A DNA stretch of 64,000 bases from Escherichia coli (GTDB taxonomy: Bacteria > Pseudomonadota > Gammaproteobacteria > Enterobacterales > Enterobacteriaceae): assembly GCF_045037415.1 (NCBI RefSeq), contig NZ_CP173438.1; one strand, written 5' to 3'. This document shows, piece by piece, positions 36,394 to 52,707 of the stretch. Position numbers and translations under genes: made by a program. Position 1 is the stretch's first letter. Each line of letters opens with the position of its first letter. A model generated the notes under the pieces. The model ran no database searches. It was not told the origin of the DNA and saw only the letters and a program-made list of their open reading frames with translations.

Positions 36394-36425
36394 AACCACG
36401 CCTCAGGGCGTGGTTTCTTATTTTT
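36394..36425 (+). terminator. nag operon terminator
   Basis: aaccacgcc-tcag-ggcgtggtt followed by T-rich tract. Confidence 0.6.
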
Positions 36426-39120: not shown

Positions 39121-39197
39121 GGCTACGTAGCTCAGTTGGTTAGAGCACATCACTCATAATGATGGGGTCACAGGTTCGAATCCCGTCGTAGCCACCA
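39121..39197 (+). tRNA. metT: tRNA-Met (elongator, anticodon CAU)
   Basis: 77-nt cloverleaf ggctacgtagctcag...gtagccacca; anticodon loop ctCATaa; identical to the copy at 39515. Confidence 0.9.
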
Positions 39198-39207
39198 TCT
39201 TTTTTTT

Positions 39208-39292
39208 GCGGGAGTGGCGAAATTGGTAGACGCACCAGATTTAGGTTCTGGCGCCGCAAGGTGTGCGAGTTCAAGTCTCGCCTCCCGCACCA
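39208..39292 (+). tRNA. leuW: tRNA-Leu (anticodon UAG)
   Basis: 85 nt with long variable arm; gcgggag acceptor pairs with ctcccgc; ends CCA. Confidence 0.85.
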
Positions 39293-39315
39293 TTCACCAG
39301 AAAGCGTTGTACGGA

Positions 39316-39390
39316 TGGGGTATCGCCAAGCGGTAAGGCACCGGTTTTTGATACCGGCATTCCCTGGTTCGAATCCAGGTACCCCAGCCA
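39316..39390 (+). tRNA. glnU: tRNA-Gln (anticodon UUG)
   Basis: 75 nt tggggtatcgccaagcggtaagg...; anticodon loop contains ttTTGat; ends gCCA. Confidence 0.9.
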
Positions 39391-39424
39391 TATTCTTCGA
39401 GTAAGCGGTTCACCGCCCGGTTAT

Positions 39425-39499
39425 TGGGGTATCGCCAAGCGGTAAGGCACCGGTTTTTGATACCGGCATTCCCTGGTTCGAATCCAGGTACCCCAGCCA
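39425..39499 (+). tRNA. glnW: tRNA-Gln (anticodon UUG)
   Basis: Identical repeat of the tRNA at 39316. Confidence 0.9.
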
Positions 39500-39514
39500 T
39501 CGAAGAAACAATCT

Positions 39515-39591
39515 GGCTACGTAGCTCAGTTGGTTAGAGCACATCACTCATAATGATGGGGTCACAGGTTCGAATCCCGTCGTAGCCACCA
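39515..39591 (+). tRNA. metU: tRNA-Met (elongator, anticodon CAU)
   Basis: Identical to the tRNA at 39121. Confidence 0.9.
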
Positions 39592-39639
39592 AATTCTGAA
39601 TGTGTCGAATATGTTCGGCAAATTCAAAAACCAATTTGT

Positions 39640-39714
39640 TGGGGTATCGCCAAGCGGTAAGGCACCGGATTCTGATTCCGGCATTCCGAGGTTCGAATCC
39701 TCGTACCCCAGCCA
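39640..39714 (+). tRNA. glnV: tRNA-Gln (anticodon CUG)
   Basis: 75 nt; anticodon loop attCTGatt. Confidence 0.9.
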
Positions 39715-39751
39715 ATTTATTCAAGACGCTTACCTTGTAAGTGCACCCAGT

Positions 39752-39826
39752 TGGGGTATCGCCAAGCGGTAAGGCACCGGATTCTGATTCCGGCATTCCG
39801 AGGTTCGAATCCTCGTACCCCAGCCA
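39752..39826 (+). tRNA. glnX: tRNA-Gln (anticodon CUG)
   Basis: Identical to the tRNA at 39640. Confidence 0.9.
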
Positions 39827-47041: not shown

Positions 47042-48919
47042 TTACGGTTCAGGGATACAAGCCACATCGCCATATTGGGGATGCCGAATAATTGCCTGCG
47101 GATCAAGTGAACTTTCTCTGTCCAGTTGTATTAGCCCGTTCTTCGCCATAACAAATATCTTTCTACCATCCGCTGAAAAACGAAGATGATTCACGTAGCT
47201 GGCAGGATAAACGCCAATAATCTGCCCGGCATTAATATTGAGCAGGATGACATAACCTTGCAGGCCATATGACACCAACGCTAAATATTGACCGTCCGGG
47301 CTAATACCCTCAACGGAATAAACGCTCCTGCTACACCATTGCGTCATAATGCTGGCTTGTTGATCCTCAGCTCTTATACGTGAAATCCCCTGGCTATCGG
47401 CAAAAATAATCTCACCATTTTTTGGTCGGAATCCCATCGCAGAAACGACACCACGCGCATCACCTGCGGGAAAGTCTTCTTTCTGATGCGTGATGGTATT
47501 GATCCGCACGATGTTACCTCTGCCTGCTCCCGGAACCAGTAATGTTTTTTCATCCGGGGAAAGTGCCATAACCCAGGCGCCTGGTTTACCGCTCATCCCC
47601 GTCCCGTCGTATTTCTCCAGCGGGATATCCGCCACATGCTGATAAGCCACCAGATCAATCGCTGACACACTATTACTGGTGCGATTCATCACCCAGGCTT
47701 TTGTGCCATCACGCGAGAGGATAAGGCTGTCAGGATGTGCGCCGGTGGTAATCGACTGAATAATCTCCCCCGTTGCCACGTTAATGACCGATAATGCATT
47801 CGCTTCAAATGAAGTCGCATACAGCAACGTTTCATCCGGGCTTAGCGCCAGCGACCTGACGCCCTGATCTTTACAGCCACCACAATGTTTGACTGACTTT
47901 TCTTTCGCTATGGGGGCTGTAAAGGTATGCAGGATTTTCTTTTGTCCGAGGTCGAAAACAACAATGCTGTTCGTGTTTTCAATTGCGGCATACAACGTAT
48001 TAGCATCCCGACTGATCGCCATATCATGGATATCGGCAATCTCAGCGAGTAAATCACCACTGGCCTGCTCACGACTTACCGGAGCGGATAATGTTTCCCT
48101 GAGGGCGTTGCGCTCCTCCACTAACTGCTGCTTTTTTTGTCGTCGCTCTTGTTCAATCTCCTGCGGATAAAACGCTTCACGCAGGCTTTGCCTGACCTGT
48201 AAAACTGATTCATCAATCTGCTGCTGCACAAGCCAGATAGTCCCGGTCAGAAGAAGAGTGACCGCAACAATAATCCCGCCTTCCGTAACGAGCCGATTTT
48301 GCCCAACTAAACGCGCACTCAGCCAACCCAACGCGCCCCCCGCAATCAGGCCGCCAATGTGGCAAGCGTTATCTATTCCTGTTTGCCGGGTACCATACAA
48401 CAGTGTCAGCGCCACCATACCCAACAGAGGAAATACTCGCCGCTGGTTTTTATGGTGTGTGCCCGCACCTGAAGCAAGCTGTGTTGCTATCGCAGCGCCC
48501 GCTATTCCCATAATTGCCCCGGATGCCCCAACGCTGATGACTATCTGCTCACTTTCGCGTAACGCATAACAGGCGCTGATCAGCCCACCAAAGATGCCGG
48601 AGAATAACCAGATAATCAGGAGTCGCCATTTCCCCAGTATCCGTTCCGCCACTGTCCCCACCACCAGGAGTGCAAACATATTCATCAGCAAATGGGAAAA
48701 ACTACTGTGCAGAAAAACACTGCTCAATAAGCGCCAGGATTCATCCGACAACGTGAGAGAAGCAACGTTAGCGCCGAGATGGATGAGTGCGGATTGATCG
48801 ACTTCTTCGTAACTCATCCATTGTGCGAGGTAACAAAATATCCCAACACAGAGCGCAAAAAGGATCAGGGTTATTGCGGGTAATTGAACATTTAACGGCT
48901 TAACCGAAGATGCAGACAT
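47042..48919 (-). CDS. Rhomboid-family intramembrane serine protease fused to a C-terminal YVTN-type beta-propeller
   Basis: 625 aa; rhomboid signatures WR...F.H..F.H, catalytic GASG and HIGGLIAG; about 7 TM segments; coiled-coil-like linker; six or more roughly 40-residue propeller repeats. Confidence 0.85.
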   Translation of the reverse strand: MSASSVKPLNVQLPAITLILFALCVGIFCYLAQWMSYEEVDQSALIHLGANVASLTLSDESWRLLSSVFLHSSFSHLLMNMFALLVVGTVAERILGKWRLLIIWLFSGIFGGLISACYALRESEQIVISVGASGAIMGIAGAAIATQLASGAGTHHKNQRRVFPLLGMVALTLLYGTRQTGIDNACHIGGLIAGGALGWLSARLVGQNRLVTEGGIIVAVTLLLTGTIWLVQQQIDESVLQVRQSLREAFYPQEIEQERRQKKQQLVEERNALRETLSAPVSREQASGDLLAEIADIHDMAISRDANTLYAAIENTNSIVVFDLGQKKILHTFTAPIAKEKSVKHCGGCKDQGVRSLALSPDETLLYATSFEANALSVINVATGEIIQSITTGAHPDSLILSRDGTKAWVMNRTSNSVSAIDLVAYQHVADIPLEKYDGTGMSGKPGAWVMALSPDEKTLLVPGAGRGNIVRINTITHQKEDFPAGDARGVVSAMGFRPKNGEIIFADSQGISRIRAEDQQASIMTQWCSRSVYSVEGISPDGQYLALVSYGLQGYVILLNINAGQIIGVYPASYVNHLRFSADGRKIFVMAKNGLIQLDRESSLDPQAIIRHPQYGDVACIPEP

Positions 48920-49372
48920 AAGGTGATTCTTCCTTGAAAAGACTAGTAAAAAGCATTTTCCCGTGTGTAGTTATCATCCCGGCAAACGTCCCACACCGAA
49001 AAGTTAACACTGTCCGAAATATGACTTTTTCAAACTGAAATTACAATCGTAATTAATTCACCCCTAAGTATTTTTTGGCATGTAAGTTGCTTTATTTACT
49101 GTGTAAGCAATGAAATCAGCCGCAACGCAACCGGGTTGCACCACCACAAATCAGCGGTAGCACCAAAAAGGTGCGGTTTAAGAATTTTGCTTCGGAATGG
49201 TGCGGCGCACCTCGCAAAAACAAACAATAAAACAGCAATATCTTTACATTTATCCAAACTAAATGTTACCTAACAAGCACAACACTGCACAATAAAGTCG
49301 CAGATGATAACAACACAAACACTCACAACGGGTATCCATGCGTTTTTAACGCAGAAGATAAAGGAGTTGGAT

Positions 49373-50281
49373 ATGCAATTACGTAAACCTGCCACAGCAA
49401 TCCTGGCCCTGGCGCTTTCCGCAGGACTGGCACAGGCAGATGACGCCGCCCCGGCAGCTGGCAATACGCTGGACAAAATCGCCAAAAACGGCGTGATTGT
49501 CGTCGGTCACCGTGAATCTTCAGTACCTTTCTCTTATTACGACAATCAGCAAAAAGTGGTGGGCTACTCGCAGGATTACTCCAACGCCATTGTTGAAGCA
49601 GTGAAAAAGAAACTCAACAAACCAGACTTACAGGTGAAATTGATTCCGATCACCTCACAAAACCGTATTCCACTGCTGCAAAACGGCACTTTCGATTTTG
49701 AATGCGGTTCTACCACCAACAATGCCGAACGCCAAAAACAGGCGGCTTTCTCTAACACTATTTTCGTGGTCGGTACGCGCCTGCTGACCAAAAAGGGCGG
49801 TGATATCAAAGATTTTGCCGACCTGAAAGGCAAAGCCGTAGTCGTCACTTCCGGCACCACCTCTGAAGTTTTGCTCAACAAACTGAATGAAGAGCAAAAA
49901 ATGAATATGCGCATCATCAGCGCCAAAGATCACGGTGACTCTTTCCGTACCCTGGAAAGCGGTCGTGCCGTTGCCTTTATGATGGATGATGCTCTGCTGG
50001 CCGGTGAACGTGCGAAAGCGAAGAAACCAGACAACTGGGAAATCGTCGGCAAGCCGCAGTCTCAGGAAGCCTATGGTTGCATGTTGCGTAAAGACGATCC
50101 GCAGTTCAAAAAGCTGATGGATGATACCATCGCTCAGGTGCAGACCTCCGGTGAAGCGGAAAAATGGTTTGATAAGTGGTTCAAAAATCCAATTCCGCCG
50201 AAAAACCTGAACATGAATTTCGAACTGTCAGACGAAATGAAAGCACTGTTCAAAGAACCGAATGACAAGGCACTGAACTAA
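49373..50281 (+). CDS. gltI: Glutamate/aspartate ABC transporter periplasmic binding protein
   Basis: ORF 49304..50281 trimmed to ATG 49373 (aaggag RBS); signal peptide MQLRKPATAILALALSAGLAQA; 302 aa. Confidence 0.9.
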   Translation: MQLRKPATAILALALSAGLAQADDAAPAAGNTLDKIAKNGVIVVGHRESSVPFSYYDNQQKVVGYSQDYSNAIVEAVKKKLNKPDLQVKLIPITSQNRIPLLQNGTFDFECGSTTNNAERQKQAAFSNTIFVVGTRLLTKKGGDIKDFADLKGKAVVVTSGTTSEVLLNKLNEEQKMNMRIISAKDHGDSFRTLESGRAVAFMMDDALLAGERAKAKKPDNWEIVGKPQSQEAYGCMLRKDDPQFKKLMDDTIAQVQTSGEAEKWFDKWFKNPIPPKNLNMNFELSDEMKALFKEPNDKALN

Positions 50282-50284
50282 TTA

Positions 50285-50437
50285 CAAGAACCAGGGGCGG
50301 AAATTCCAGCCCTCTCGATTGTTACGTAGCACGGACAGACTATACGCCTGGTGGTCGTTCCCCATCGGGCCTGAAAACCGCAATACGCTGGGTAACAATC
50401 TTCGAGGGTAGCAGTTAACGCTGCTACCCTCTTTTTT
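50285..50437 (+). ncRNA. sroC: SroC-like sRNA region (gltI-gltJ spacer) ending at an intrinsic terminator
   Basis: 169-bp structured spacer; 11-bp stem gagggtagcag / ctgctaccctc at 50404..50431 followed by tttttt; 5' end not determined. Confidence 0.4.
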
Positions 50438-50450
50438 CTGGAGTAGATTT

Positions 50451-51191
50451 ATGTCTATAGACTGGAACTGGGGTATTTTTTTACAACAAGCCCCGTTCGG
50501 CAACACCACCTATCTTGGTTGGATCTGGAGTGGCTTTCAGGTGACGATCGCTTTGTCGATCTGCGCCTGGATTATCGCTTTCCTCGTCGGTTCATTTTTC
50601 GGCATTTTACGTACCGTTCCAAACCGTTTTCTCTCCGGTCTGGGTACGTTGTATGTCGAACTGTTCCGCAACGTGCCGTTGATTGTGCAATTCTTTACCT
50701 GGTACCTAGTGATCCCGGAGCTGCTGCCAGAGAAAATCGGCATGTGGTTTAAGGCAGAGCTGGATCCCAATATTCAGTTTTTCCTTTCATCCATGCTCTG
50801 CCTGGGGCTGTTTACCGCCGCCCGTGTTTGCGAACAGGTACGCGCAGCTATTCAGTCGCTGCCGCGTGGGCAAAAAAATGCCGCGCTGGCGATGGGTCTG
50901 ACGCTACCGCAGGCTTACCGCTACGTACTGCTGCCTAATGCTTATCGCGTTATCGTCCCGCCGATGACCTCAGAGATGATGAACCTGGTGAAAAACTCCG
51001 CCATCGCCTCGACTATCGGTCTGGTGGATATGGCGGCGCAGGCGGGTAAATTGCTCGATTACTCGGCCCACGCCTGGGAGTCGTTTACCGCCATCACGCT
51101 GGCGTATGTATTGATTAACGCTTTTATCATGCTGGTGATGACGCTGGTTGAACGTAAAGTTCGCCTGCCCGGCAACATGGGGGGCAAATAA
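50451..51191 (+). CDS. gltJ: Glutamate/aspartate ABC transporter permease
   Basis: 246 aa; polytopic permease with ABC transmembrane-domain signature region. Confidence 0.95.
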
Positions 51192-51865
51192 TGTACGAGT
51201 TTGACTGGAGTTCCATTGTTCCTTCCCTGCCATATCTGCTCGACGGGCTGGTGATCACGCTGAAAATCACCGTCACGGCAGTGGTGATTGGTATTTTGTG
51301 GGGCACCATGCTGGCGGTGATGCGCTTGTCCAGCTTTGCGCCCGTAGCGTGGTTTGCCAAAGCCTACGTTAACGTATTCCGCTCGATTCCTTTAGTTATG
51401 GTTTTGCTGTGGTTTTACCTGATCGTACCGGGTTTTCTGCAAAACGTGCTGGGATTATCACCCAAAAATGATATCCGTTTAATTTCGGCGATGGTGGCGT
51501 TTTCGATGTTTGAAGCGGCCTACTATTCAGAGATTATCCGTGCTGGTATTCAAAGTATTTCTCGTGGTCAGTCGAGCGCCGCGCTGGCGTTGGGAATGAC
51601 TCACTGGCAGTCGATGAAACTGATTATTCTGCCGCAGGCGTTCCGCGCGATGGTGCCGCTGTTGCTCACTCAGGGCATCGTACTGTTTCAGGATACCTCA
51701 CTGGTGTATGTGTTATCTCTGGCCGATTTCTTCCGTACCGCCTCAACCATTGGTGAGCGTGATGGTACGCAGGTTGAGATGATCCTGTTTGCCGGATTTG
51801 TTTATTTCGTTATTAGCCTTAGCGCGTCGTTGTTGGTCAGCTACTTGAAAAGAAGGACAGCATAA
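51191..51865 (+). CDS. gltK: Glutamate/aspartate ABC transporter permease
   Basis: 224 aa; start overlaps gltJ stop. Confidence 0.95.
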
Positions 51866-52590
51866 TGATTACCCTGAAAAATGTTTCAAAATGGTATGGT
51901 CACTTTCAGGTGCTGACCGACTGCTCAACCGAAGTGAAAAAAGGCGAAGTTGTGGTGGTTTGCGGCCCGTCTGGTTCCGGCAAATCAACGCTGATTAAAA
52001 CCGTCAACGGCCTCGAACCGGTGCAGCAAGGTGAAATCACCGTCGATGGCATCGTGGTTAACGACAAGAAAACCGATCTGGCGAAACTGCGTTCCCGCGT
52101 CGGGATGGTGTTTCAGCATTTCGAGCTGTTCCCCCATCTGTCGATTATCGAAAACCTGACCCTGGCGCAGGTGAAAGTGCTTAAACGCAATAAAGCGCCG
52201 GCTCGTGAAAAAGCATTGAAATTGCTGGAGCGCGTCGGGCTTTCCGCACATGCCAATAAGTTTCCGGCGCAGCTTTCCGGCGGCCAGCAGCAGCGTGTGG
52301 CGATCGCTCGCGCATTGTGCATGGATCCTATTGCCATGCTGTTCGACGAACCAACGTCGGCGCTGGATCCGGAGATGATCAACGAAGTGCTGGACGTGAT
52401 GGTCGAACTGGCGAACGAAGGAATGACGATGATGGTGGTGACCCACGAAATGGGCTTTGCCCGTAAAGTGGCGAATCGGGTGATCTTTATGGACGAGGGT
52501 AAAATTATCGAAGACTCGCCGAAAGACGCTTTCTTCGATAATCCGAAATCGGACCGCGCAAAAGACTTCCTCGCAAAAATCCTGCATTAA
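51865..52590 (+). CDS. gltL: Glutamate/aspartate ABC transporter ATP-binding protein
   Basis: 241 aa; Walker [10 protein letters not shown], signature LSGGQQQR, Walker B. Confidence 0.95.
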
Positions 52591-52707
52591 TCACTCTGGC
52601 GCGCATACTCAATTGCGCGCCATCTCACGCTTTCTCGTTTCGTCCCTCGTATCTGTTACATCCCGGCGTTACCCTTGTCGCAAAGAAACACACAACAAGG
52701 AGCAACA

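Follow-up and report, generated by a model that had tools for sequence, protein, structure and literature searches.

The gltI-gltJ spacer of an Escherichia coli genome and the small RNA SroC

What does the spacer between gltI and gltJ encode in this Escherichia coli genome? The question was addressed in a window of 64 kb, by which we mean the whole stretch of DNA that was analysed. The spacer occupies positions 50282-50450 and is 169 bp long. The sequence and the list of open reading frames (ORFs) place the TAA stop codon of gltI at 50279-50281 and the ATG of gltJ at 50451. The sequence-only reading of this DNA had described a 169-bp spacer with an 11-bp perfect stem followed by six T residues just before gltJ, and the positions confirm all of this. 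It had also proposed an SroC-like small RNA for the spacer, which is borne out by a full-length Rfam match and by K-12 b4763 at the same position. The spacer almost certainly encodes SroC, an Hfq-binding small RNA from the gltI 3' UTR that acts through decay of the small RNA GcvB. SroC is already known and is annotated in K-12, and its occurrence here adds no new biology. Its identity, position, structure, pairing sites, terminator and conservation were computed here. Its processing, Hfq dependence, effect on GcvB decay and terminator leakiness are carried over to this strain from the K-12 and Salmonella literature. The coordinates of the features are collected in Table 1.

Table 1. Features of the gltI-gltJ region, in window coordinates
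Feature	Coordinates	Strand	Basis or remark
SroC small RNA, 163 nt	50277..50439	+	Rfam RF00369 full length; K-12 sroC b4763 at equivalent place
SL1 hairpin (SroC nt 18-37)	50294..50313	+	MFE fold; helix 1
P2 long stem (nt 41-62 with 95-124) around SL2	50317..50400	+	MFE fold
GcvB-pairing site GGACAGAC (SroC nt 57-64)	50333..50340	+	Exact 8-nt complement of K-12 GcvB R3/SL4 nt 156-163
SL2 hairpin (nt 70-94), 9-bp stem, 7-nt loop	50346..50370	+	MFE fold; helix 6
Sole difference from K-12 sroC: G for A, SroC nt 75	50351	+	Alignment
GcvB-pairing site UCGUUCC (SroC nt 79-85), the SL2 loop	50355..50361	+	Exact 7-nt complement of GcvB SL1 nt 13-19
Rho-independent terminator, 11-12 bp stem, 4-6 nt loop, U6	50404..50437	+	Stem scan; 3' end of SroC and of short gltI mRNA
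Candidate GcvB R1 target in gltI 5' UTR	49299..49332	+	RNAduplex
gltI, periplasmic glutamate/aspartate-binding protein, SroC parental mRNA	49373..50281	+	909-bp CDS; annotated start from SK1144 and K-12
gltJ ribosome-binding site GGAG (50440-50443) and gltJ CDS (50451-51191), first permease gene on read-through	50440..51191	+	
gltK (51191-51865) and gltL (51865-52590), remaining operon genes 3' of the attenuating terminator	51191..52590	+	

The start of gltI bears on how the upstream region is read. The automatic ORF call begins gltI at an upstream ATG (49304) and gives a product of 325 amino acids. The annotated ATG at 49373 gives a product of 302 amino acids, which opens with the signal peptide MQLRKPATAIL. 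With the annotated start, the GcvB R1 site at 49299-49332 therefore lies in the 5' UTR and is not coding. A consensus scan of 48900-52800 retrieved no sigma-70-like sites on the plus strand and missed the real gltI promoter too, so that its negative result is a weak sign that SroC lacks its own promoter. Two other observations were made in the window. Between lnt and gltI it encodes a 625-amino-acid rhomboid-family intramembrane serine protease on the minus strand (47042-48919), as does SK1144; in the lnt-gltI interval of K-12 MG1655 this gene is replaced by an IS5D insertion (insH3). An array of seven tRNA genes was retrieved with the Rfam tRNA model at 39121-39823 on the plus strand. This array would correspond to the metT-leuW-glnUW-metU-glnVX cluster of the K-12 map.

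The Rfam sroC model (RF00369) matched 50277-50439 on the plus strand over its full length (model positions 1-163 of 163). The match scored 172.6 bits against a gathering score of 45 (E = 2.5e-36). It was the sole non-tRNA Rfam match in a search of the whole window. Our own covariance model gave 206.7 bits for the same interval. The 5' end of SroC lies 5 nt within gltI and not at the spacer boundary, and the 3' end is the U-tract of the terminator. The curated K-12 MG1655 record lists an ncRNA, sroC (b4763, 163 nt), between gltI and gltJ on the same strand. The K-12 gene overlaps the final 5 nt of gltI and ends 11 nt short of gltJ. When the two were aligned, the window SroC was identical to K-12 sroC at 162 of 163 positions; this alignment to annotated SroC, which the sequence-only reading had proposed as a check, establishes homology. 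The locus, the sense strand and the length of 163 nt are also those of the known SroC RNAs, including the Salmonella SroC of Miyakoshi, Chao and Vogel (2015). Of 5426 complete E. coli genomes, 5421 contained a 411-nt segment spanning the spacer, with a median copy number of one. A discrete SroC is known in E. coli from northern blots and from GcvB RIL-seq chimeras (PMC10250213, PMC5145812, PMC9299463).

The spacer is predicted to be strongly folded. Its minimum free energy (MFE) was -65.7 kcal/mol, against -42.7 +/- 3.8 kcal/mol for shuffled sequences (z = -6.0), and none of 200 shuffles was equally stable. The fold contains the conserved features of SroC, which are SL1, a long stem enclosing SL2 and the terminator hairpin. 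It shares with known SroC the three-domain fold and the terminator, together with two GcvB sites 14 nt apart.

Orthologues were retrieved by a scan of species-representative genomes with a pattern spanning both GcvB sites. The 67 loci retrieved belong to Escherichia, Salmonella, Citrobacter, Klebsiella, Raoultella, Enterobacter, Kluyvera, Kosakonia, Phytobacter, Lelliottia, Yokenella and others. Neither the stems nor the terminator formed part of the selection pattern. The pattern required both GcvB sites, so conservation of these sites in the orthologue set is not independent evidence. A covariance model was built from six indel-free Escherichia copies and the MFE structure, and 64 full-length copies were aligned with it. 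A first alignment, which had taken in weak antisense echoes (19-41 bits) and truncated or insertion-bearing loci, was dropped and redone with a strict cut-off.

The 63 distinct orthologues came from about 20 enterobacterial genera. Their pair cells were 92.6% paired, against 39-50% in slid controls in which the partners were shifted by 1-3 columns; the covariance-model alignment is fitted to the model structure and so favours it. Both-sided changes were found in 18 pairs (195 cells), and 0 of 500 shuffles matched this. They fell mostly in SL2 and P2. SL2 (helix 6) was 97.5% paired, with both-sided changes in 6 of its 9 pairs. P2 (helices 2 and 3) contained compensatory changes in 8 of 13 pairs. 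SL1 (helix 1) was paired in 90.6% of cells and contained both-sided changes in 3 of 8 pairs. Helix 5 (nt 60-62 with 95-97) was paired in just 66.7%, as would fit a bulge where the first GcvB site lies. An independent alignment with MAFFT and RNAalifold again yielded the terminator and SL2, the latter with identical compensatory changes. It missed SL1 and P2 owing to indels. A small hairpin in columns 50-70 of that alignment was rejected, as it had no compensatory support.

The single base that differs from K-12 SroC is G50351. It stands opposite U89 in the SL2 stem, where the A-U pair of K-12 becomes a G-U pair and pairing is kept. An exact 61-mer with this base was found in 1086 of 5414 E. 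coli genomes (about 20%), and G50351 is a common lineage allele. Across genera, the pair at nt 75-89 is A-U in 27 sequences, G-C in 24, C-G in 8 and G-U in 1, the window itself. Since A-U, G-C or C-G may stand at this position across genera, the pairing is what is conserved.

The window keeps every nucleotide of both GcvB-pairing sites. The gap between them is 14 nt, which matches the published spacing; two SroC-GcvB pairing sites of 7-8 nt each, 14 nt apart in SroC, have been described (PMC4474525). The GcvB regions that pair with SroC have been named SL1 and R3 (PMC9299463). The critical C residues at nt 60 and 84 are C63 and C87 of the Salmonella numbering (offset +3). In published probing, one protected G lay at the SL2 tip and two lay in an internal bulge (PMC4474525), and the positions of the sites here (the SL2 loop and the weakly conserved helix 5) fit these data. 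Complementarity of 7-8 nt to GcvB is not beyond chance, as 375 of 500 SroC shuffles reached at least 7 nt. It was dropped as statistical evidence, such stretches being typical of shuffled SroC. The pairing function therefore rests on published compensatory mutants, which combined SroC C63G with GcvB G160C and SroC C87G with GcvB G14C (PMC4474525). Point mutants of sroC stabilised GcvB and left the SroC level unchanged (PMC4474525). Judged by the sequence match, the GcvB sites of the window are intact, and the match is not proof of function.

The partner RNA and its target were also considered. Of 5426 E. coli genomes, 5425 contained gcvB, which was at least 99% identical in 5389 of them. RNAduplex was run with the R1 region of K-12 GcvB (nt 61-91) against 49240-49390. 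[quoted passage not shown] The candidate site is the other half of the published feedback loop of SroC, GcvB and gltI.

The terminator pairs GAGGGTAGCAG (50404-50414) with CTGCTACCCTC (50421-50431). It contains 11 Watson-Crick pairs and a 6-nt loop, and a possible U-G closing pair would make 12 pairs and a 4-nt loop. The stem is followed by TTTTTT (50432-50437), which ends 13 nt before the gltJ ATG, with the GGAG between. This was the top-ranked terminator-like site in a consensus scan of 48900-52800 (12 pairs, of which 7 are G-C). On both strands of the whole window, no other perfect stem of 10 bp or more was followed by a T-rich tail. Forty shuffles that preserved dinucleotide composition contained on average 0.025 stems of 9 bp or more each, and none contained a stem of 11 bp or more. 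Lowering the limit to 9 bp adds one further site to the window, a perfect stem with a T-rich tail at 36394-36415 on the plus strand. It contains AACCACGCC-TCAG-GGCGTGGTT followed by TCTTATTT and is probably another intrinsic terminator.

The base of the SroC terminator (GGGUAGC/GCUACCC) and the T-run were invariant in the 63 distinct orthologues and so are uninformative for covariation. The tip of the hairpin varies. Escherichia and Kluyvera contain different tip insertions, each of which is still self-complementary. The Escherichia hairpin has a 9-nt tip insertion, a stem of 11-12 bp, a stability of -22.7 kcal/mol and a U6 tract interrupted by C. By comparison, the hairpin in most other genera, including Salmonella, Citrobacter and Klebsiella, has a 9-bp stem, a stability of -13.7 kcal/mol and a U8 tract. 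The Kluyvera insertion is independent and gives -20.4 kcal/mol. Within Escherichia, one locus (L010) carries CCCTTTTTTTT in place of CCCTCTTTTTT.

The published biology of SroC is extensive. SroC has been described as a stable RNA, about 160 nt long, that carries a 5' monophosphate (PMC4474525). Its 5' end lies inside gltI, where there is no transcription start, and its 3' end is the conserved Rho-independent terminator in the gltI-gltJ spacer (PMC4474525). Correct maturation needs RNase E and Hfq (PMC4474525). This terminator has been called leaky, and some transcription goes on into gltJKL (PMC4474525). Because it is leaky, one gltI promoter yields both a full gltIJKL mRNA and a short gltI mRNA (PMC4474525; PMC9438474), and RNase E frees SroC from the short one (PMC4474525). 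The sequence-only reading had expected attenuation between the binding-protein gene and the permease genes, in agreement with the published leaky-terminator model (PMC4474525, PMC9438474). In E. coli the half-life of GcvB falls from more than 16 min to about 4 min with SroC, and SroC expressed alone destabilises GcvB (PMC10250213). SroC accounts for about 70% of the GcvB interactions in stationary-phase RIL-seq data (PMC5145812; PMC9299463). Further SroC targets given in reviews are MgrR, fliE and flhBAE (PMC9438474).

The proposed mechanism for the window follows this work. Transcription from the gltI promoter would either stop at the hairpin and U6 tract (50404-50437) or read through into gltJKL. 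Stopping would produce the short gltI mRNA. With this partial read-through, binding protein would be made in excess over the permease and ATPase subunits. Trimming of the short mRNA by RNase E, in a 5'-end-dependent manner, would halt at the SroC body and leave a stable RNA of 163 nt with three structured domains. SroC is described as exceptionally stable (PMC4474525, PMC10250213). With Hfq, SroC would then bind GcvB at two places, R3 through the GGACAGAC site and SL1 through UCGUUCC in the SL2 loop of SroC, and this would trigger decay of GcvB by RNase E. Loss of GcvB would in turn de-repress its regulon of amino-acid and peptide transport and metabolism, which includes the parent gene gltI.

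SroC resembles several known RNAs. Like CpxQ, SdhX, OppZ, MalH and NarS, it is released by RNase E, uses the terminator of its host mRNA, binds Hfq and carries a 5' monophosphate (PMC9438474, PMC10250213). Unlike these RNAs, it ends at a terminator inside the operon and not in the 3' UTR of the last gene. Its main target is another small RNA, for which it is a sponge or decay trigger, and not an mRNA as for the CpxQ-type small RNAs. In this it is like the chbBC-ChiX pair, where an intercistronic RNA of a transporter operon inactivates an Hfq-dependent small RNA that represses the same pathway (PMC4474525, PMC5145812). In the SroC case two distant sites are paired, GcvB is then degraded by RNase E, and SroC stays stable. 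ChiX, by contrast, is paired with chbBC in a way that alters its terminator region and exposes it to PNPase (PMC4474525). The operon as a whole is like other binding-protein ABC operons, whose first gene encodes the binding protein and whose first intergenic region contains an element that raises the amount of this protein above that of the permease and ATPase (PMC4474525). The usual route is a monocistronic 5' fragment that is stabilised against 3'-exonucleases, whereas gltI uses a leaky intrinsic terminator (PMC4474525).

Two other readings of the spacer were weighed against SroC. The spacer may be only a cis-acting terminator or mRNA stabiliser that sets the ratio of GltI to GltJKL, with the 160-nt RNA an inert decay intermediate. 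The terminator and the cis effect are real features, and the short complementarity to GcvB is statistically unexceptional. Compensatory mutations in SroC and GcvB nevertheless restore regulation, and the point mutants stabilise GcvB at an unchanged SroC level (PMC4474525). SroC alone destabilises GcvB in E. coli (PMC10250213), RIL-seq chimeras have been found (PMC5145812), and the window retains both GcvB sites in full. An inert fragment is ruled out for K-12 and Salmonella by the published genetics (PMC4474525, PMC10250213), and we consider it very unlikely here. The spacer might also be a repeat of the REP or ERIC type, or encode the 75-amino-acid minus-strand ORF at 50282-50509 that is on the ORF list. 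Other genera do have ERIC-like repeats in this spacer, but the spacer of the window contains no repeat insertion, and its sequence occurs as a single copy, both in the window and in E. coli genomes. No inspected record annotates a minus-strand gene here. Orthologue indels of 1, 4, 6 and 7 nt, together with paired compensatory changes, point to a structured RNA rather than to a coding frame. On these grounds (single copy, no annotation, frame-breaking indels and compensatory substitutions) both the repeat and the antisense ORF were rejected, and this reading is the least probable of all those considered. SroC remains the preferred reading.

The spacer is interrupted or altered in some other Enterobacteriaceae. 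A repeat of about 125 nt is inserted in it at two positions, in the loci L015 (6868-7000), L021 (6459-6580), L026, L043, L045, L050 and L054. The repeat contains ...GGCGGCAACTGAGCGAATCCCCGGGAGC...GTGACCGGG...AAGGCAGCCAAC...GTGTAA. It appears to resemble the ERIC/IRU consensus. In strain RIT691 (L015) it interrupts SroC itself, after SL2 and before the 3' arm of P2. Several genomes of Citrobacter, Phytobacter and Intestinirhabdus carry it between the gltI stop and SL1, and there the usual 5' end is about 120 nt from the core. The Yokenella regensburgei locus (L049, 4263-4422, minus strand) keeps the 5' half of SroC with both GcvB sites and is divergent after SL2. It contained no recognisable terminator in the 220 nt examined and scored 47.8 bits, against 80-208 bits for the other copies. 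It may parallel the truncated, non-functional Yersinia homologue of PMC4474525.

A further reading would add to SroC and not replace it. SroC might also be a regulated attenuator. Here the nearly invariant CCCUCUCG (nt 34-41) would form a helix with CGAGGG (nt 127-132) in competition with the 5' arm of the terminator, and this alternative fold would set how much transcription reads through into gltJKL, possibly via Hfq, another factor or gltI translation. The authors of PMC4474525 raised regulated termination as a possibility. The Rfam consensus structure pairs nt 37-41 with 127-131 and leaves the terminator unpaired. These pairs overlap the 5' arm of the terminator (nt 128-138), and a helix formed before the 3' arm is made could explain leakiness. 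For nascent transcripts without the 3' arm, four or more of the five pairs were in the MFE fold of 34 of 62 orthologues, the window included. Both blocks of the helix are nearly invariant across about 20 genera, and a single compensatory change was found (U39C with A129G, in L045). A second register (nt 34-38 with 128-132) was pairable in all 63 distinct sequences.

This evidence is offset by the covariation controls, which gave no signal beyond shuffles. The first register was 96.8% pairable, and 194 of 500 shuffles were as good. For the second register 500 of 500 shuffles were as good; its 100% pairability arises because both sides are nearly invariant. The middle pair of the first register is broken without compensation in 10 sequences, including Raoultella and Klebsiella loci. 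Once the RNA is full-length, the terminator fold is the more stable by 6-13 kcal/mol in every orthologue but one (L021, 2.6 kcal/mol). The invariance may be explained otherwise, by a U-rich Hfq-binding module just 5' of the terminator hairpin or by sites for other targets. The stop codon and SL1 are not a fixed distance apart, and some lineages have a repeat element between them; this disfavours a conserved coupling to translation. Of the published sources, PMC4958250 (mBio 2016) names gltI-sroC-gltJKL in its strain lists only and contains no genetic evidence on attenuation. The main text of PMC7815308 (eLife 2021, 3'-end mapping) mentions neither sroC nor gltI. It is unlikely, in our judgement, that the near-invariant CCCUCUCG (50310-50317) and CUUCGAGGG (50400-50408) form an early helix that competes with the base of the terminator, and a regulated attenuator of this kind is correspondingly doubtful. 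If it were true, the SroC terminator would be a tunable attenuator of SroC output, and hence of the GcvB level, and of gltJKL read-through. It would answer the open question of the 2015 paper on regulated termination. The longer Escherichia stem (-22.7 against -13.7 kcal/mol) would then be a lineage-specific reset of the balance.

The SroC of the window is thus a known RNA at its known place, and its value here is one of annotation and comparison. The three non-K-12 RefSeq records that were inspected (SK1144, RM9088 and the feature columns of other matches) list gltI and gltJ and no ncRNA between them. Readers of such records would meet a structured spacer without an explanation. The repeat insertions that split the SroC unit in some lineages could be natural experiments on SroC biogenesis. 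Of minor comparative value are the G-U allele in the SL2 stem and the terminator hairpin of Escherichia, which is markedly stronger than that of other genera. SroC itself is a textbook case of an mRNA-derived small RNA sponge.
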